Below, one piece after another: positions 49,958 through 57,455 of a stretch of 64,000 nt of DNA. The DNA is from an uncultured Gammaproteobacteria bacterium. GTDB lineage: Bacteria; Patescibacteriota; Microgenomatia; UBA1406; HO2-37-13b. The notes beneath the pieces are model-generated. The model had not been told where the DNA came from. It was given only the letters and a program-made list of their open reading frames with translations, and made no database searches. Where the stretch lies: positions 6,123 to 70,122 of the forward strand of contig CAYPSA010000006.1 in the NCBI GenBank assembly GCA_964413645.1. The letters run 5' to 3'. Made by a program: the position numbers and the translations under genes. Every line of letters starts with the position of its first letter. Within the stretch, counting starts at the first letter, position 1.

Positions 49958-51748
49958 ATGCCTAAATTTACATTCAATGAACTTAATGATCAACAACGAG
50001 AAGCCGTTGAAGCGGTAAAGGGACCTTCGATTATTCTCGCAGGTGCGGGATCAGGGAAGACTCGTGTGCTAACAAGTAAAGTAAAAAATTTGATTCAAAA
50101 TTATAACGTAGATCCATTACATATCATGATGGTTACCTTCACCAATAAGGCTGCTGCAGAAATGAAGGAGCGGGTTGGAGAGAAACTTGGTTTTATTGGA
50201 ACATTTCATTCATTTGGAGTTCGAGTATTACGTCGTTTCGCTCCGCTTGCACATCTTGATCCAGAATTCATTATTTACGACCGTGACGATCAAGAGTCGC
50301 TAATAAAAGAAGTATTAGTAGAGCTTGAGATAGACAAAAAATATACACCTGCATTTTTCTTAGGTAGAATTTCTAGTGCCAAAGATGAGCTGATTTCTCC
50401 GGCAAAATATCAAGAAATGTTTAAAGATTTCTTGGGTAAAATGGTTGGACCTGTTTATGCTTTATATCAAAAAAAGTTGGAACGAAATAATGCAGTCGAT
50501 TTTGACGACTTAATTTACAAAGTCGTTAATCTTCTTAAATCCAATGAATCCGTGTTGGATTTTTATCAAAAGCAATTTCAATATATTCTTGTTGATGAGT
50601 TTCAAGATACAAATTTTGCTCAATATTTACTTACGAAACTTCTTGGTCGAGCGGATCAGAATGTAACGATTGTTGGGGACTTTTCGCAAAGTATCTACTC
50701 GTGGCGAGGCGCGCAAATTAAGAATCTTGAGAAATTTAAAACAGACTTTGAAGATGCACAGACTTTTTATTTGGAGGAAAATTATCGATCAACTCAAAAA
50801 ATTTTGGATTTTGCATATGACATAATTTCTCAGAATGAAACGCATCCAATTTTAAAAGTGTTTACACAACAAGGTGGTGGGGAAGAGGTGGTAATTGAGG
50901 AGCTTGAAAATGAAGAATATGAGGCTCTGTATGTTGCGGCTCAGATTGAGAATGCAGTGTCGCAAGGCGATCGTGAGTATGATTCATTTGCTGTTTTGTA
51001 TCGCATCAATGCGCAATCGCGAGCAATCGAAGAAGCATTTTTACATATGGGAATTCCATATGTTCTTATTGGCGGAACACGGTTTTATGAGCGAAAGGAA
51101 GTAAAAGATGTTTTGTCGTATTTGCGATTGTTGGCTAACGAACGAGATTCTGTTTCACAGGCGCGTGTAGAAAAAATTGGAAAAAGGCGATTTGATAGTT
51201 TCAAGATTTTGTACGAAGTGATGCGCGACAAACTTCAAACAACTCCCACACTTGAAATCATCGATGCCATTCTTGAGAGGACGAGATATACCGAACTATA
51301 CAATGGAGATCAGGAAGATGACATCGCACGACTCGAAAACATTAAGGAACTTCGTTCGGTTGCGCTGAATTTTCCATCGCTACACGATTTCTTGGAACAA
51401 GTTGCATTAGTTGAATCTGAGTATTCTCAGAATGAGAAGAATAATCGTGAGAAAAAAGGAGTTCGTTTAATGACACTTCACCAGGCTAAGGGTTTGGAGT
51501 TTCCTTTTGTATTTATTGTAGGACTTGAAGAAGGGATTCTTCCACATAGTAGAGCAGTTGATGATTTATATGAGCTTGAAGAGGAGCGAAGACTCTTTTA
51601 TGTGGGTATTACTCGAGCTCGTGAAAAGCTCCATATAACCCATTCTCGTAAACGATTTATGTTTGGACGAAGAAATTACAGTCAAAAATCGCGCTTTTTA
51701 GATGATACAATTACAGCATCTGCAGATCCAATTACTGATTGGGACTAA
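49958..51748 (+). CDS. UvrD/PcrA/Rep-family SF1 DNA helicase (compact, 596 aa)
   Basis: AGAGSGKT, VDEFQDTN, TLHQAKGLEF and YVGITRA motifs. Confidence 0.85.
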   Translation: MPKFTFNELNDQQREAVEAVKGPSIILAGAGSGKTRVLTSKVKNLIQNYNVDPLHIMMVTFTNKAAAEMKERVGEKLGFIGTFHSFGVRVLRRFAPLAHLDPEFIIYDRDDQESLIKEVLVELEIDKKYTPAFFLGRISSAKDELISPAKYQEMFKDFLGKMVGPVYALYQKKLERNNAVDFDDLIYKVVNLLKSNESVLDFYQKQFQYILVDEFQDTNFAQYLLTKLLGRADQNVTIVGDFSQSIYSWRGAQIKNLEKFKTDFEDAQTFYLEENYRSTQKILDFAYDIISQNETHPILKVFTQQGGGEEVVIEELENEEYEALYVAAQIENAVSQGDREYDSFAVLYRINAQSRAIEEAFLHMGIPYVLIGGTRFYERKEVKDVLSYLRLLANERDSVSQARVEKIGKRRFDSFKILYEVMRDKLQTTPTLEIIDAILERTRYTELYNGDQEDDIARLENIKELRSVALNFPSLHDFLEQVALVESEYSQNEKNNREKKGVRLMTLHQAKGLEFPFVFIVGLEEGILPHSRAVDDLYELEEERRLFYVGITRAREKLHITHSRKRFMFGRRNYSQKSRFLDDTITASADPITDWD

Positions 51749-51751
51749 CAT

Positions 51752-52756
51752 ATGAAAATAGAAATATTACCCGATGATTTTAATCAGGAATTATACAATT
51801 CTGTCGCTATTCATCCGCTACAATCATGGCAATGGGGAGAAGCTCGAAAGAAAATGGGAATTCGGGTTATGAGAGTTGGGGTATTTGTTGGCGAAGAGTT
51901 AAGAAATGTTTTTCAAGTTACATTTCACTCCATACCAAAAACTCCTTTTACCATTGGATATTTACCAAGAAGTACATTTCCCAATAAAGACGTTTTACAT
52001 TTTTTGCAGAAAGAAGGAAAGAAGCGAAACTGCATTTTTATCAAAGTAGAGCCATATGTTTCTAAAGGGCAGCCGAGCCAACTTTTTCATCCGGATTTAG
52101 TAAAGTCGCCTCATCCACTCTTTCCAAAGTTTACACAAATACTTGACCTTACCCTTTCTGAAAGTGAGCTATTAAAGCGTCTTAAGTCAAAAACTCGATA
52201 CAACATTGGTATTGCGCAAAAGAGGGGAGTCGAAATTAGAGAAATGACCAGTGATGAGGGATTTTCAATTTTTTCCGGATTATTTTTTGACACAGCAAGT
52301 CGGCAAAAATACTACGGTCACAATAGGGAATACCACAAAGTTATTTTTGACTCATTAAAAGGGAGTATGGCACATATTTTGATTGCTTTATATCGAGCGC
52401 ATGGGAAGCTTACTCCCCTAGCCGCTTACGAACTCTTCATATTTAACGACGTTATGTATTATCCATATGGTGGTTCATCTGTTGATTATCGTAATGTAAT
52501 GGCTCCTAATTTACTTATGTGGGAAGCGATTTTATTTGCAAAAAACCATGGTTGTAAAAAATTCGACATGTGGGGATCATTACCGCCCGACTATGACCCG
52601 AATGATTCATGGAGTGGTTTTACGCGGTTCAAGCAGGGATACGGAACGGAATTTATTGAATTTGTAAGCGGGAGAGATTTGATAATATCGCAGCCGCTGT
52701 ACCATTTATATAATCTTGCTCATACAATTCGAAAAAAAGTCTTACGAATGGGGTAA
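51752..52756 (+). CDS. FemAB-family peptidoglycan interpeptide-bridge aminoacyltransferase
   Basis: SWQWGE, TRYNIGIAQKRGVEI and FKQGYG motifs. Confidence 0.75.
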   Translation: MKIEILPDDFNQELYNSVAIHPLQSWQWGEARKKMGIRVMRVGVFVGEELRNVFQVTFHSIPKTPFTIGYLPRSTFPNKDVLHFLQKEGKKRNCIFIKVEPYVSKGQPSQLFHPDLVKSPHPLFPKFTQILDLTLSESELLKRLKSKTRYNIGIAQKRGVEIREMTSDEGFSIFSGLFFDTASRQKYYGHNREYHKVIFDSLKGSMAHILIALYRAHGKLTPLAAYELFIFNDVMYYPYGGSSVDYRNVMAPNLLMWEAILFAKNHGCKKFDMWGSLPPDYDPNDSWSGFTRFKQGYGTEFIEFVSGRDLIISQPLYHLYNLAHTIRKKVLRMG

Positions 52757-52776: not shown

Positions 52777-55719
52777 TTATTGCCACGCTTCACAGTTTAT
52801 TTTAAAAGGGCACCAGCTACACCAAGGCCCAGTATGTGCGTCAAACTTCCCTACTTTAATTTTAGAAACCACATCTTCAATAGTACCGATAACAACATCT
52901 AAATCTTTCTGAGTCTTTGTAAATGAAACCTTCTTGTTTTCTTGAAAGTAAATGTAGCTTACTGTAATTTTATCTAATGGTTTTCCAAACAAGCTCGGGT
53001 CAGTTGCTGCACGGGCGTACAACGAAAGTTGCATTTCCTTTTTAAAATCTGCATCGCTTGGAACTTTGCCCGTTTTATAATCGATGATTTCGATAGTTCC
53101 ATTTTGCAAATAATCAATTCGATCAATTTTTCCAGAAATATATATTCCTTCTTCAATTTTTATTTTGAACGACTGTTCAAGTCCTGCGATCTTAATTTCT
53201 TTTGAGTGGTATGTATTGTAGAATTCACGTAAAATCCGTTCTCCTTCCTGTTTCATTTCTTGCTCATATTTTTTTGAACCATATCCAATAGGAACCCAAT
53301 TCGTTTTATATAAATCTAAGAGCGTGGTAAGTGTTGGTTGTAGATTTTGCATGTGTTGTTGGTAAAAGAATTGCAGCGCAGCATGAATTGAAGTTCCAAA
53401 AGATGCAGCAGATCCGGCAGCAGTTGGAATTTTTAAAATATATTGGTATTTGTATTTGAGCGGACAAGTAAGATATGTTTGTATCTGTGAAAAAGAAAAA
53501 GCACGGGGGATATGTTTTACTTTTATTTCTTTAGTTGGTTTTTTATCTTCTGTTAATTTTCCAAATGAATTTCGTAAGCTTGGCAAATCAAAAATTGCAA
53601 GTTGCCCTTTGGAATCCTGTGCTGATACGAGCGCTTTTTGAATACCGTTTTCCCCAACTGCTTCAAAAACATACGGAGAAATTTTGTGTTCACGCTTCCC
53701 TTCTCCGTAAAAACTTGAGCCCGACATAAATAATCTTTTTTTTGCACGAGTCATTCCTACGTAAAATAATCGACGTTCTTCTTGCAAGTGTGCATTTCCT
53801 ACAGGTAAAACTTCTTTGATTAAATCATCGGGTAACGGAATTTGTTCTTTACGATCGTATGTAGGAAATCGACCCGATGTAAGATTTATCATAAAAACCG
53901 TATCAAACTCTAAGCCCTTAGCAGCATGAATAGTTGAGATAACTACTGCATTTTGACTTTCAAAATCATCTTCATCCACTGGAGTGCTGTCGCCCAGCTC
54001 CATACTTAAATTTATAAAATCTACAACCGCAATGACCGAAGCATCTTCTTCTTGCAATTCGTACGCTTTTAATTTGTTAAAAAACTTAGAAATATTTTTG
54101 GCTCGGTCTTCTTCCTTTTCAGTTGTGAAGTGGGAAATTTTCGCAAGGTATCCACTGTTTTCAAGAAAGTAAAAAAGTAATTGACCCGCAGTATCTTTTT
54201 TCATGCGAGCAATACTCTGATTAATGAGCGTAACAAGTTTATAAAGGTGCTCTTTTGAATCCTTTCGCATTGAAAAGATGTAGGGTTTGTAATGAATGTT
54301 TTCCTCACTTGAAAGATCACTATACGAAAAGCCAAGATATATAAGTGCGCTTTCGAATAAAGATAGTCCAATTTTTCGACTGAATGAAACTAGCCGAGCC
54401 AAGTCAATTTCATGAATATTGAAAACTTCCATTTGCGTAATCCGATAAAACGCTGCAGAATTATTGATGTCATATAAAACTTCCAAGTATGCAATGAGCT
54501 CTTTTATTTCCGGCTGGCGAAGAAGCATTCCCGGACCAGGAAGTTGAAATGGAATCCCCTTTTTTAACAATGCTCGAATAAATGGCTCACTGTGGCTATT
54601 TGCACGGGTAAGAATTGCAAAGTCGCTGTAGGTGAGTGTTGAGTTTTCTTTTTTCGTTTTAATTATTGTCTTTACTACTTGTTCAGCCTCAGATGTCACA
54701 AAAGGATGGATTTGGAATTGGGGACTTGTTTCGCTTGTACCGATTTTAGAAATAAGATTCTTGGAAATTTTAAGGCGAGCTTCCAACGTATCGTGATCGT
54801 TGTTTTTGATTAGCTTATACGATGTGTCTAAAATAGACTGCGTACTTCTAAAGTTTTCAGTTAATACAATTTGTTTTGATTTTTTATAATCTTTGGTGAA
54901 TGTGAGAATGTTGGAAATAGACGCCCCGCGGAACTTATAAATGCTTTGATTATCGTCACCAATGACAGTGAGATTTGGTTTATTTTTTGTAGGAGCAAGA
55001 AGTTTAATAAGCTCGTACTGTGCTATATTAGTATCCTGAAATTCATCGACTAGAATATATTTAAATTTCTTTTGATACTGCGCAAGAATGTTCTTTCTCT
55101 TTCTGAATAATGTTAGAGTGTATGAGATTAAATCGGCAAAATCCATGATATTGTGAGTGCGTTTCAATTCCTCGAAAGCAGCGTATGCTTGAGCAAGTTC
55201 CACATATTTTTCTTTGTCTTCTTTTTGTTTTGCAGCAAACACTCTATAAGCAGCAGGAGATACGTCTTCGTCAGCAAGTCGTGAGAAATGCTGAAGCAGC
55301 CCAAATAAAAATTTATTTGGATTAGAAAGAGGTTTGAAATATTTTAAATTTAAATTCCCAATATTCCGGCGCAAAAACATAATTGCCTGAGCTTGTGTGT
55401 GGAGCTTATACGCCGGCGACATTCCAATATGAATAATTTCATCGCGCAGGATTTTATCTGCAAATGCATGAAACGTACTAATGTTTGTTTGAAAAAAGCC
55501 AATGGGCAAGGCCTTATCTACCCGATCTTCCATTTCTTTAGCAGCCTTTTCGGTGAAGGTAAGCGCAAGAATTTCATCGGGCTTCGCGAGTTTTTTTTCA
55601 ATTAAGTGTTTTATTTTTTCAACCAATACTGTCGTCTTTCCAGTTCCTGCTCCGGCGATAAGGAGTAGTGGGCCTTTAGTGTGTTTGACTGCCTTAATTT
55701 GTGTGGGAGTAAGTTGCAT
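52777..55719 (-). CDS. UvrD-type helicase fused to a PD-(D/E)XK nuclease with a Cas4/AddB-like 4-Cys cluster
   Basis: GAGTGKT and VDEFQDTN motifs. The C-terminus has TCPLKYKY, GKIDRID, EIIDYKTGK, QLSLY and CSWCPFKINC. TATAAT lies 8 nt upstream of the ATG. Confidence 0.85.
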   Translation of the reverse strand: MQLTPTQIKAVKHTKGPLLLIAGAGTGKTTVLVEKIKHLIEKKLAKPDEILALTFTEKAAKEMEDRVDKALPIGFFQTNISTFHAFADKILRDEIIHIGMSPAYKLHTQAQAIMFLRRNIGNLNLKYFKPLSNPNKFLFGLLQHFSRLADEDVSPAAYRVFAAKQKEDKEKYVELAQAYAAFEELKRTHNIMDFADLISYTLTLFRKRKNILAQYQKKFKYILVDEFQDTNIAQYELIKLLAPTKNKPNLTVIGDDNQSIYKFRGASISNILTFTKDYKKSKQIVLTENFRSTQSILDTSYKLIKNNDHDTLEARLKISKNLISKIGTSETSPQFQIHPFVTSEAEQVVKTIIKTKKENSTLTYSDFAILTRANSHSEPFIRALLKKGIPFQLPGPGMLLRQPEIKELIAYLEVLYDINNSAAFYRITQMEVFNIHEIDLARLVSFSRKIGLSLFESALIYLGFSYSDLSSEENIHYKPYIFSMRKDSKEHLYKLVTLINQSIARMKKDTAGQLLFYFLENSGYLAKISHFTTEKEEDRAKNISKFFNKLKAYELQEEDASVIAVVDFINLSMELGDSTPVDEDDFESQNAVVISTIHAAKGLEFDTVFMINLTSGRFPTYDRKEQIPLPDDLIKEVLPVGNAHLQEERRLFYVGMTRAKKRLFMSGSSFYGEGKREHKISPYVFEAVGENGIQKALVSAQDSKGQLAIFDLPSLRNSFGKLTEDKKPTKEIKVKHIPRAFSFSQIQTYLTCPLKYKYQYILKIPTAAGSAASFGTSIHAALQFFYQQHMQNLQPTLTTLLDLYKTNWVPIGYGSKKYEQEMKQEGERILREFYNTYHSKEIKIAGLEQSFKIKIEEGIYISGKIDRIDYLQNGTIEIIDYKTGKVPSDADFKKEMQLSLYARAATDPSLFGKPLDKITVSYIYFQENKKVSFTKTQKDLDVVIGTIEDVVSKIKVGKFDAHTGPWCSWCPFKINCEAWQ

Positions 55720-55779
55720 GGTACCCCATTATATGCTATAATACGTGCCTATTGGAAGGAAATTAAAGATAAAATAAAT

Positions 55780-56055
55780 ATGGAAGGATCTCTTAGAATA
55801 ATTAGACCAAATGCGTTTTCAAGCTGTATGGATTGTCCAGTCGCCGCGAAAGCTATTGACGCAGCAGCTCCATGTGTCGAAGGCGGTACGCTTACGGAAG
55901 TCGCACTTCGTTGTGAACAGTCAGGGGGAGTCATTTTTATGGGAGTTCAAACTACAGAGGTTGTAGACAATTACATGAAACTAGGAATGAGAATTGTAAC
56001 TCATAGAGAACCTGGCGCTTTAGTAGAATGCCCCGGTCTTCAGTCAAATCAATAA
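55780..56055 (+). CDS. Small 4-Cys protein, unknown family (paralog 1)
   Basis: 91 aa: FSSCMDCPVA...RCEQ...ECPGL. A TGcTATAAT promoter lies at 55734-55742. The track start 55681 overlaps the divergent helicase gene. Confidence 0.55.
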   Translation: MEGSLRIIRPNAFSSCMDCPVAAKAIDAAAPCVEGGTLTEVALRCEQSGGVIFMGVQTTEVVDNYMKLGMRIVTHREPGALVECPGLQSNQ

Positions 56056-56056
56056 C

Positions 56057-56383
56057 ATGCGCGTAGAAAATATATCCGTAGAGCCAAGAAAAAAGTTTTC
56101 AGACTGTGCTACCTGTCCCCAAGCTCAAGACGTTGCTTTAAAAGTAATTCGTGAAGTAAGAGTGCGTCCGACTGATCTGATACAGATTTCTGGTTATGTC
56201 TACAAAGGTGATCAACCAACCAGTTTAGCGATAGCATGTGAGCGCATTCCGGGTAATACATGTCAAATGGTTATGGGAGGTAGTATTCAAGTGGTAAATG
56301 AGCGAGATGGGGTACCGCAAGAAATGGCGATATATGACCGGGCAGTTATTTGTCCTGCACTTTCTACTCCACAAAATCCTTAA
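56057..56383 (+). CDS. Small 4-Cys protein, unknown family (paralog 2)
   Basis: 108 aa: [10 protein letters not shown]...ACER...ICPAL. It starts 1 nt after the paralog 1 stop, and its 3' end overlaps the rpoD 3' end by 20 nt. Confidence 0.55.
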
Positions 56384-57455
56384 GTTTTCGTGCGCGGGTG
56401 GGGTGACGCAATTTTCGAATTGCTTTTGCTTCAATTTGTCGAATACGTTCACGGGTTACATTAAATTCTTTTCCAACATCTTCAAGCGTTTTGCTTTTTC
56501 CATCATCTAATCCAAATCGCATAATAAGTACTTTTCTCTCGCGCTCGGACAACGTATCAAGAACCTCATTTAAGTAATCACGCAAAAATTCTTTAGAAAC
56601 AGTGTCATATAATGTTGGCTGATCAGTATCTGCAACAAATTGCTCAAGCGTCGTTTCCTTATCATCTCCAATAGGAGTAGAAAGTGATTTTGGATGCTGG
56701 GAAATTTTGATTAAATTCTCAACTTCTTTTACAGAAATTTCCATTTCTTTGGCAACTTCTTCATTTGAAGGATCGCGGCCAAGTTTTTGAATAAGTTTTC
56801 GTTGAATTTTGTAGTATCGATTAATATTATCGACCATATGAACTGGAATACGAATGGTCCGTGATTGATCGGCAATAGCACGTGTAATAGCTTGTCGAAT
56901 CCACCAGGTGGCATATGTAGAGAATTTGTATCCTCGGCGCCAGTCATATTTTTCTACACCTTTAATAAGTCCCTGATTACCTTCTTGAATCAAATCCAAA
57001 AATGATAAGCGACGACCTAAGTATTTTTTTGCAATAGAAACAACCAAACGTAAGTTTGATTTAATGAGTTTTTCACGAGCATCAAGGTCTTTCTTTTCGT
57101 ATGCTTTAGCAAGTTTAATTTCATCTTCGAATTGAAGAAGTGGGTATTGACCAATTTCTTTCAAATACATCTTGATAGGATCTAGCGATTCACCGTGACG
57201 AATAGTAACGAGCTGTTTCAGCTCTCGCTCTAGCTCCTCAATGGTTTTTTTTGCATCTTCTTCATCGCGAGTAGAAACATTTTCAAAAATATCGATCTTT
57301 TTTTTCATTGACTTATCAAATAAGTCATCAATTTCTTCGATATGGTGTTCAGGGTCGGGGTAAACAAAGAAGATATCATCAAGAACCAAAAAGCCGTTTT
57401 CTTCTCCCTGCTTAAGAAGTTCTTTGATTGATTTAGGAATTTTTTGCAAAGACAT
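56364..57455 (-). CDS. rpoD: Primary RNA polymerase sigma factor (sigma-70 family)
   Basis: [13 protein letters not shown] (region 2.4) and [20 protein letters not shown] (region 4.2). Confidence 0.9.

Follow-up and report, generated by a model that had tools for sequence, protein, structure and literature searches.

What are the two small genes that stand in tandem between rpoD and a helicase-nuclease gene in a 64,000-nucleotide stretch of contig CAYPSA010000006.1 (the window, meaning the whole stretch that was analysed), and why do they vary so strongly on flanks that are highly conserved? The host, as indicated by the source names of its rpoD cluster, is an uncultivated groundwater member of Candidatus Roizmanbacteria (Microgenomates, candidate phyla radiation or CPR). 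A first-pass annotation, made from the letters of the window, had singled out these two open reading frames (ORFs) as paralogs from a family that it did not recognise. The present analysis supports with high confidence the description of the pair as paralogs belonging to an undescribed four-cysteine (Cys4) family, located beside a conserved block of -10 elements and occurring as hypervariable allele types that have been exchanged between lineages. A function in genetic conflict is a tentative suggestion, possible and still open to serious doubt. The combined statement, in which an undescribed and exchanged Cys4 gene pair serves a conflict-related function, is regarded as slightly favoured.

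Tandem pair and its four-cysteine family

The two genes and their invariant cysteine codons, the latter taken from the family alignment described below, are located as follows.

55780 to 56055, plus strand: first gene (ORF1, allele type I), 91 aa, ATG start at 55780
55825-27, 55834-36, 55912-14 and 56029-31, plus strand: ORF1 cysteine codons C16, C19, C45 and C84, respectively
56057 to 56383, plus strand: second gene (ORF2, allele type I), 108 aa, ATG start
56105-07, 56114-16, 56237-39 and 56351-53, plus strand: ORF2 cysteine codons C17, C20, C61 and C99, respectively

The coordinate given as the start of the pair in the first-pass annotation, 55734, belongs to a promoter element; the gene itself starts at 55780. 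The ORFs of 91 and 108 aa are indeed one nucleotide apart, as a single base (C, 56056) lies between the stop codon of ORF1 and the ATG of ORF2 (TAAcATG), and translation of ORF2 is probably coupled to that of ORF1. All the motif blocks quoted at that stage are present in both proteins. The paralogy considered clear at the time would be weak if judged from the two sequences alone: BLASTP yields an E-value of 0.011 restricted to the N-terminus, global alignment yields 26% identity with the four cysteines aligned, and a shuffle test yields a z of about 3 (p about 0.01). It becomes solid once relatives are added, the comparison of a first-gene profile (10 sequences) with a second-gene profile (6 sequences) using hhalign giving a probability of 97.8% and an E-value of 9.5e-13 over 88 columns. 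ORF1 and ORF2 can thus be taken as true paralogs.

Relatives were retrieved by two types of searches. A word-seeded search of 5.8 billion proteins returned near-identical relatives only when seeded with single sequences, and further relatives were obtained with divergent seeds, namely the small ORFs of L007 (related loci are designated by L numbers). When 1.84 billion representative proteins were searched exhaustively with an HMMER profile, 16 matches were obtained at E <= 1e-3, 15 of which are true. The candidate P0029 was rejected as a false positive: this giant repeat protein of 1,975 aa contains 13 repeats, each with F-N-S-C-S-A-C-P-P, and matches via that motif alone. An alignment of 18 members displays four invariant cysteines, C16, C19, C45 and C84 in ORF1 numbering, aligned with C17, C20, C61 and C99 of ORF2, as well as three near-invariant residues (P10, M54 and P85, ORF1 numbering). 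The family pattern can be written as P-x2-[FY]-x2-C-x2-C ... C ... M ... C-P-G-[LF], the identity elsewhere being 20-30%. The four cysteines per protein proposed from the pair alone are therefore retained by its diverse homologs. Most members contain exactly four. A fifth, non-conserved cysteine is found in ORF1 (C32, 55873-55875), where it is confined to the three closest type I sequences (window, L001 and L002), and in ORF2 (C69, 56261-56263), where it is replaced by Tyr in the 94%-identical copy of L002 (L002 5230-5556). The proteins are soluble, 88-110 aa in length and for the most part acidic to neutral; family members were found to carry neither a signal peptide nor a membrane segment.

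The family has been encountered so far only on CPR contigs of the Roizmanbacteria/Microgenomates type and on unassigned metagenome contigs. The gene neighbourhoods of the homologs, whose analysis had been proposed at the outset, show the distant members to be singletons in unrelated contexts: after trmD, in a region with an S21 ribosomal protein and an extracytoplasmic function (ECF) sigma factor, near a zeta-toxin-like kinase gene, or beside genes for secreted proteins. Single-sequence scans of ORF1 and ORF2 against Pfam and NCBIfam gave no match, and the 18 members gave none against Pfam at E <= 1 and 0 against PADLOC; with PHROGs, single-member matches only were obtained, at E >= 0.1. A profile search of PDB sequences retrieved Eps1p only, with an E-value of 0.48 that amounts to noise. 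No match was found by tblastn of both proteins against 50,697 phage records, nor with the P0030/P0031 sub-alignment among IMG/VR viral contigs; beyond these, the sub-alignment retrieved only a contig that was already in the set. No description of this locus was found in the literature. The 'hypervariation' described in CPR bacteria (PMC6851277) concerns a repeat-containing extracellular protein and is unrelated to this locus. As far as these collections reach, the family is undescribed and very rare, no described family or system being matched, and its non-recognition in the first-pass annotation is confirmed for Pfam, NCBIfam, PHROGs, PADLOC, PDB sequences and PDB folds. The claim of novelty extends only to this absence of a match. 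Small families without a description abound in CPR genomes, and what is surprising about this locus is therefore mainly its population-genetic behaviour.

The coding status of the pair is supported by several properties. The annotated frame is the only one free of stop codons across all alleles. The ratio of nonsynonymous to synonymous differences per site (pN/pS) in this frame is 0.26-0.54 for the first gene; three of the four pairs lie significantly below 1 (p 4e-4, 1e-6 and 2e-4). In the second gene the values are 0.26-0.62, the comparison with L002 giving p = 0.014 and the remaining pairs no significance. Purifying selection, as estimated from these substitutions, is significant on the first gene and weaker on the second. 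The higher G+C content first noticed by eye is real (0.442 for ORF1 and 0.428 for ORF2, against a mean of 0.377 with a standard deviation of 0.025 for 55 proxy genes in the window, that is 2.1-2.6 standard deviations over the gene mean). The G+C at third codon positions (GC3) is native, with 0.283 and 0.275 for ORF1 and ORF2 and 0.298 (standard deviation 0.029) for the genome. The excess is thus confined to codon positions 1 and 2, as reflected by a codon-position G+C of 0.58, 0.45 and 0.28 (GC1 > GC2 > GC3), and both proteins are rich in Ala, Gly, Pro, Val, Glu, Arg and Cys. It is an amino-acid effect and, GC3 being native, the composition is no sign of foreign origin. Of the two readings offered earlier for this excess, strong composition constraints was thus the right one. 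Recent acquisition does not follow from composition; recent movement between related lineages is nevertheless indicated by the synonymous divergence and the incongruent alleles described in the next section. A structured RNA was also considered and is unsupported, Rfam giving no match at E <= 1 for the region. Judged by these sequence properties, the analysis shows ORF1 and ORF2 to be real protein-coding genes.

Allelic exchange on conserved flanks

The loci compared within the clade are those of the window, L001, L002-L006, L007, L087, L089, L090, L091-L093 and L099. Gene content and allele types are distributed as follows.

One gene in the gap: L001 (first gene only, gap of 407 bp)
Two genes in the gap: all other loci
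First gene, type I: window, L001, L002
First gene, type II: L007, L089
First gene, type III: L087, L090
First gene, type IV: L091
First gene, type V: L099
Second gene, type I: window, L002
Second gene, 47%-identical relative of type I: L091
Second gene, type II: L007, L087, L089, L090
Second gene, type III: L099

At least five types of first gene and three or four types of second gene can thus be distinguished, with an identity of about 25-45% between types and a spacing of 1-12 nt between the two genes across loci. For the same pairs of genomes, the C-terminal 129 codons of rpoD are 98-100% identical and the first 140 codons of the helicase 94-100%. The same picture is obtained by blastn of the window against L007, in which the alignment extends up to the rpoD stop codon and is then interrupted until about 20 nt into the 5' end of ORF1, with nothing in between.

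The boundaries of the variation are best seen in pairs of loci that differ in one gene only. In sliding-window DNA comparisons of L007 with L087, the helicase flank is 85-96% identical, the second gene 98-100% and rpoD 75-96%; in the body of the first gene identity falls to 25-40%, the level of a forced alignment of unrelated DNA. L089 and L090 display the same pattern; for the two pairs together, the first-gene body stands at 25-41% against 93-100% DNA identity for the flanks and the second gene. Conversely, a single first-gene type is found in both L087 and L090 (86-95% DNA identity), whose helicase flanks are just 80-85% identical. The sharing of a first-gene type on diverged flanks makes the first-gene tree, (L007, L089)/(L087, L090), incongruent with that of the helicase and the second gene, (L007, L087)/(L089, L090).

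Synonymous divergence was compared between the cassette and its flanks. The counts are given below as synonymous differences over synonymous sites, with the corresponding Fisher test.

Window versus L002, both genes: cassette 12/138, flank 70/178, p 2e-10
L087 versus L090, both genes: cassette 24/141, flank 95/180, p 2e-11
L007 versus L087, second gene: cassette 0/62, flank 62/180, p 5e-10
L089 versus L090, second gene: cassette 0/62, flank 44/180, p 6e-7

Within an allele type, the synonymous divergence of the cassette is mostly 4-8 times below that of the flanks. The exception is the type II first gene, for which the number of synonymous substitutions per site (dS) between L007 and L089 is 0.92, near the 1.08 of the helicase flank; type II thus appears to be resident, and type III to have come in recently by replacement in the two lineages. 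The ratio of nonsynonymous to synonymous substitution rates (dN/dS) is 0.00-0.03 for the flanks and 0.23-0.74 for the cassette. In the second gene of L089 and L090, 7 nonsynonymous changes are found for 0 synonymous ones, a count that is not significant alone.

The last 17 codons of the first gene, V-D-C-P-G-[FL]-Q-A-Q-S-A-[AV]-T-P-P-Q-G, are nearly identical in types II and III (<=2 substitutions), the remainder being unalignable. This shared tail would mark the right-hand recombination breakpoint inside the first gene, and the left breakpoint would fall directly after the TATAAT of the promoter. Incongruent allele types combined with a low synonymous divergence lead to allelic replacement by recombination. 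As read from the aligned loci, these comparisons show that allele types were swapped between lineages by recombination in the conserved flanks, and that their spread is later than the divergence of the core genes.

Junction between rpoD and the helicase gene

The elements of the junction and the two flanking genes are located as follows.

55709 to 55742, no strand assigned: back-to-back -10 block of 34 nt, GTAAGTTGCATGGTACCCCATTATATGCTATAAT, which includes the first four helicase codons in minus-strand reading
55714 to 55742, plus strand: putative promoter of the small-gene pair, with TTGCAT (55714-55719), a 17-nt spacer and the extended -10 element TGCTATAAT (TGcTATAAT, 55734-55742)
55728 to 55733, minus strand: putative -10 element of the helicase-nuclease gene, TATAAT, 8 nt before the helicase ATG (55717-55719)
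56364 to 56383, no strand assigned: antisense overlap of 20 nt between the 3' ends of ORF2 and rpoD
56364 to 57455, minus strand: rpoD (sigma-70), upstream flank, with Pfam Sigma70_r1_2, r2, r3 and r4 on the orthologue
52777 to 55719, minus strand: UvrD-type helicase/PD-(D/E)XK nuclease fusion of 980 aa, downstream flank, with Pfam UvrD-helicase, UvrD_C and PDDEXK_1 on the orthologue

On the minus strand, rpoD and the helicase gene are read in the same direction, in the order dnaG, rpoD, helicase, a point that the first-pass annotation does not mention. ORF1 and ORF2 are antisense to both of them inside the gap, which measures 644 bp in the window and 663 bp in L007. The helicase-nuclease is 89.7% identical to its L007 orthologue over the best tblastn segment. 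In a scan of rpoD loci in 80 Roizmanbacteria/Microgenomates genomes, the co-directional rpoD-helicase adjacency was found in only 3 genomes and the small-gene pair in only one, L007, whose rpoD is about 100% identical to that of the window; its two small ORFs occupy the same site and are almost unrecognisably divergent, with the cysteines retained. Two outgroups, L008 and L009 (helicase 60% and 50% identical), contain no small genes and have an rpoD-helicase gap of 13 bp and 1 bp, respectively. In these loci devoid of the cassette, the helicase ATG directly follows the rpoD stop codon in an operon-like arrangement. On account of this tight gap, the pair is read as an insertion into the rpoD-helicase junction of a clade whose rpoD sequences are at least 98% identical. 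Judged from two outgroups, the cassette is thus probably an insertion into a formerly tight junction.

Neither terminal repeats nor a target duplication were seen at the cassette. A mobile element with terminal repeats was rejected, the lone 10-nt inverted repeat being expected about 0.3 times by chance and not conserved in L002. A diversity-generating retroelement was rejected as well: the variation affects whole genes and is not adenine-specific, and no template repeat was found.

The 34-nt block is constant save for 2 positions in all eight related loci compared, even though the adjacent small genes are unalignable, and the promoter of the small genes is kept across all allele types. Both -10 elements are present, and the divergent promoters proposed in the first-pass annotation are thereby upheld. 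The plus-strand site was missed by the consensus promoter scan, its -35 hexamer fitting at only 3 of 6 positions. The position of the helicase -10 element would give a leaderless helicase transcript, and if this TATAAT is a working promoter, the insertion of the cassette would have uncoupled the helicase from rpoD. In L087 (by gene call), L090 and L099, the start codon of the first gene lies 3, 10 and 11 nt after the -10 element, which would imply a leaderless or near-leaderless mRNA for those alleles. No Shine-Dalgarno motif precedes ORF1 or ORF2. This absence is uninformative because, among 40 window ORFs of 200 aa or more, none shows a 4-5 nt core between -18 and -4 (with starts chosen mechanically), and the organism appears to lack such motifs generally. 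No terminator was found after ORF1 or ORF2, and a scan of metagenome DNA with the invariant promoter block as query gave 0 matches.

The overlap of 20 nt with rpoD, reported earlier, agrees in its coordinates. It is present in the 108-aa type I second gene and in its relative from L091, whose terminal Q-N-P it dictates; the type II second gene, of 91 aa, ends exactly at the rpoD stop codon. A separate observation concerns the second gene of L091 (760-1093; also L092 and L093), whose start is ATC instead of ATG (TAA-t-ATC). Gene callers report it as a 71-aa product (P0027) devoid of the C-x2-C, and the upstream codons still encode the conserved N-terminus with both cysteines. The ATC is either a non-canonical coupled start or the sign of a start codon lost very recently.

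Predicted structure and possible function

AlphaFold2 models were obtained for both proteins, with a predicted local distance difference test (pLDDT) score of 66.6 for ORF1 and 61.4 for ORF2. The ORF1 model consists of strand-helix-strand-strand-strand-strand and the ORF2 model follows the same order of elements. The models are of low confidence and mutually consistent, with a strand, a helix and then three or four strands. The C-x2-C is placed just before the helix, the third cysteine in the long strand following it and the fourth where the last strand ends or just beyond. Foldseek searches of PDB with both models gave nothing significant (best E 0.04, template modelling (TM) score <= 0.41). 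PelC was dismissed as a fold match on this basis (E 0.04, TM 0.40). Ribosome hibernation factors of the HPF/YfiA/RaiA type, which are strand-helix-strand-strand-strand proteins of about 95 aa, appear among the weak matches of both models (TM 0.30-0.38, E 0.1-1.3) and were also rejected, the Pfam model of that family (S30AE/sigma-54 modulation proteins) giving no match. The resemblance probably reflects a generic topology only, and HPF differs by the absence of a Cys4 core and by an invariant target, which conflicts with the hypervariability of the small genes.

The family was further compared with known cysteine-rich domains. It resembles small C-x2-C metal domains (HMA, rubredoxin/zinc ribbon, ferredoxin) by its size, by a C-x2-C loop leading into a helix after the first strand, by its Cys-Pro dipeptides and by four cysteines available as ligands. 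It differs from them in having a single C-x2-C, the other cysteines standing alone 25-40 and about 38 residues apart, and no sequence match in Pfam or PDB was found even at E <= 1-10, nor any fold match; the G-M-x-C-x2-C of HMA, the C-x2-C-x2-C-x3-C-P of ferredoxin and the second knuckle of zinc ribbons are all absent. The HMA domain carries (G)M-x-C-x2-C in the loop between its first strand and first helix and adopts a strand-helix-strand-strand-helix-strand fold. An HMA metallochaperone was rejected, as Pfam gives no match at E <= 1, F/Y-x-x instead of M-x precedes the C-x2-C and the models lack a second helix. Zinc ribbon and rubredoxin-like Cys4 sites are built from two C-x2-C (or C-P-x-C) knuckles; the present proteins have one, with isolated third and fourth cysteines and no Pfam or PDB sequence match. 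The 4Fe-4S ferredoxins follow C-x2-C-x2-C-x3-C-P, or C-x2-C/D-x2-C ... C-P, and were set aside since the first motif here has two cysteines and not three, again with no Pfam match. WhiB-like (Wbl) proteins are all-helical Fe-S proteins that bind sigma-70 and display C-x(14-22)-C-x2-C-x5-C; the spacing here is C-x2-C-x(25-40)-C-x(~38)-C, the models are mostly strand and Pfam gives no match. ZAS anti-sigma factors combine H-x3-C-x2-C with an anti-sigma domain and are usually co-transcribed with an ECF sigma factor. This candidate was discarded too: no His is found four residues before the C-x2-C, there is no Pfam match, and the pair is convergent with rpoD and not co-transcribed with it.

The mechanism that we propose can be summarized as follows. 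The four cysteines would hold one structural metal, most likely zinc or alternatively an Fe-S cluster, as established knowledge of Cys4 sites suggests. The metal or redox binding put forward in the first-pass annotation is plausible. This metal would staple the small strand-helix-strand-strand-strand domain and leave the remaining surface free to diversify. The evolutionary pattern suggests that each protein binds a partner that itself varies, and it could act in a strain-specific way, for recognition, immunity or inhibition, in a genetic conflict with a phage, a mobile element or a competitor's toxin. The second gene would derive from tandem duplication, the products perhaps forming a heterodimer and those of single-gene loci homodimers. 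Polymorphism in presence and copy number, divergent alleles, gene-specific spread and scattered singletons are traits of conflict or recognition genes, and as such they fit poorly with partners of invariant housekeeping proteins; an invariant sigma factor or helicase is therefore an unlikely partner. Going one step further, the pair could be the founding example of a CPR-restricted class of strain-specificity determinants, made of a Cys4-stapled domain with a replaceable surface, located at a fixed junction beside a bidirectional promoter and spread through populations by gene-specific allele sweeps. This extension is speculative and rather unlikely. Such determinants could confer immunity to toxins made by competitors or hosts, or could neutralise phage proteins, in ultra-small bacteria that live as episymbionts.

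General knowledge offers two analogies, neither of which implies homology. Like orphan or polymorphic immunity-gene arrays (acquired interbacterial defence clusters, polymorphic-toxin immunity cassettes), whose products protect against a cognate toxin, the locus encodes small (about 90-110 aa) soluble intracellular proteins, with tandem divergent paralogs, a copy number of 0, 1 or 2, discrete alleles and strain exchange on conserved flanks. It differs from these arrays in that no toxin gene or toxin-domain remnant lies nearby, no described immunity or defence family is matched, the site is a fixed chromosomal junction and not an integrase-bearing island, and the invariant Cys4 core is atypical of known immunity families. 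Allelic specificity loci that recombination and frequency-dependent selection maintain (agr groups, competence pherotypes and hsdS specificity genes, for example) share with it the sharp boundaries between hypervariable and conserved DNA, the presence of one allele type on different backgrounds and alleles younger than their flanks. They differ by a cognate receptor, kinase, transporter or methylase, none of which is found here, and the small proteins are predicted folded cytoplasmic domains and not exported peptides or enzyme subunits.

Several points weigh against a function in conflict. No toxin, phage or defence gene was seen beside any family member, PADLOC and PHROGs are empty, and no copy was found in the phage or viral collections. 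Positive selection was considered and is not supported, all dN/dS values being below 1 and the 7:0 count not significant; weak constraint acting on a gene that the cell can do without could be another explanation of the elevated dN/dS and the allele turnover. The models, with a pLDDT of 61-67, are of low confidence, and the sample of loci is small, with about 10 independent contigs, several of them short.

One rival reading, the first suggestion of the first-pass annotation, is a housekeeping-type small metal or redox factor (zinc, Fe-S or thiol-disulfide; metallochaperone, electron carrier or redox sensor) with a conserved biochemical role, whose fast evolution would come only from small size and weak constraint. 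The four invariant cysteines, the C-x2-C at the N-terminus of a predicted helix, the two Cys-Pro dipeptides, purifying selection and native GC3 all agree with such a factor. It is nevertheless unlikely. Of 80 related rpoD loci, 79 lack the small genes, as do two outgroups in which the gene order is the same, and the family is missing from nearly all of the 1.84 billion representatives. Copy number is 0, 1 or 2, and allele types of about 25% identity have moved between lineages while their flanks are 94-100% identical, a pattern at odds with a conserved biochemical function. HMA, ferredoxin, rubredoxin, thioredoxin and glutaredoxin models give no match even at E <= 1. Another rival is an accessory of the neighbouring gene products: a modulator of the helicase-nuclease, a sigma-70-binding (anti-sigma-like) protein or a DNA-binding autoregulator of the bidirectional promoter. 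All clade loci indeed link the pair tightly to the helicase start and the rpoD end, and the promoter block is shared with the helicase. The small proteins are, however, hypervariable next to a nearly invariant promoter and to parts of rpoD and helicase that are 94-100% identical, the outgroups carry helicase and rpoD without the pair, and distant members reside beside unrelated genes (trmD, the S21 ribosomal protein/ECF region, secreted proteins). The proteins are in addition acidic to neutral, which is atypical of DNA binders, and lack both the ZAS motif (H-x3-C-x2-C) and the WhiB cysteine spacing. This accessory role is improbable, and the partnership with the adjacent DNA-repair enzyme envisaged in the first-pass annotation is unlikely in view of L008 and L009, of the unrelated distant contexts and of the contrast between about 25% identity in the pair and 94-100% in the flanks.

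Presence or absence among close relatives, insertion between housekeeping genes, movement between lineages and a layout of two small genes 1-12 nt apart under one promoter could also describe a toxin-antitoxin-like addiction module, or a selfish mini-cassette between core genes, kept by post-segregational killing. Type II toxin-antitoxin systems consist of two unrelated proteins, a toxin fold and a DNA-binding antitoxin, which are always paired. The type II assignment was rejected because the products are paralogous, single-gene loci exist and no toxin or antitoxin is matched in PADLOC or Pfam. An addiction module of any kind is very improbable on the same grounds (the first gene stands alone in L001 and the distant members are singletons), the more so as there are no terminal repeats or target duplication and the only inverted repeat, of 10 nt, is not conserved. 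Exported cysteine-peptide precursors (ribosomally synthesised modified peptides, a two-peptide bacteriocin or a pheromone) would account for tandem paralogous small ORFs with conserved cysteines and a hypervariable remainder, the variability being that of signalling or killing specificity, and the discrete allele types resemble pherotype loci. Such precursors are highly improbable here: signal peptide, double-glycine leader and hydrophobic segment are all absent, none of the contexts has an adjacent maturase, transporter or kinase gene, and conservation extends over the whole 90 aa of a predicted folded domain and is not arranged as leader and core. Finally, the ORFs might be chance frames in a variable spacer that serves as promoter, terminator or antisense RNA for rpoD and helicase, with no Shine-Dalgarno motif before and no terminator after them, very few homologs, and a position antisense to a possible rpoD-helicase read-through transcript. 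Conservation of the four cysteines, of the Pro and Met residues and of the CPG motif in 18 proteins of 20-30% identity, unrelated contexts included, effectively refutes this reading, which is hardly credible given also that the annotated frame alone is open with pN < pS, GC1 > GC2 > GC3, the host generally lacks Shine-Dalgarno motifs (0 of 40 long ORFs) and Rfam gives no match. The interpretation given in the first-pass annotation is, as a whole, partly supported.

The preferred reading, a strain-specific conflict function, bears on a little-known area. CPR/Patescibacteria contain many unannotated small genes, and the way in which these ultra-small, probably symbiotic cells handle phages, competitors and hosts is almost unexplored. 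The locus is a compact and well-delimited case, with a minimal Cys4 core, at least five first-gene and at least three second-gene types, and clear signs of alleles passing between lineages at a faster rate than core-genome divergence. If the conflict function is real, it would provide a handle on strain-level interactions in uncultivated bacteria and a natural, very small metal-stapled scaffold tolerating near-total replacement of its surface. If it is not, the locus still offers a clean gene-specific sweep in a CPR population and an example of how a small insertion may split an rpoD-helicase pair and supply promoter elements.

Additional observations were made in the vicinity. The 980-aa helicase-nuclease fusion, on the minus strand, has an AddB-like C-x2-C-x5-C motif at its C-terminus. 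A FemAB-family gene (51752-52756, plus strand) is located between this fusion and a 596-aa UvrD-type helicase (49958-51745, plus strand), and the two helicases may represent an AddAB-like pair, split and convergently arranged. Records with a Roizmanbacteria/Microgenomates-type rpoD (74-100% identical to that of the window) are often titled 'uncultured Gammaproteobacteria bacterium', for instance L007, L009, L010 and L013; on such metagenome-assembled genome records, this title looks like a placeholder or a wrong taxonomy.

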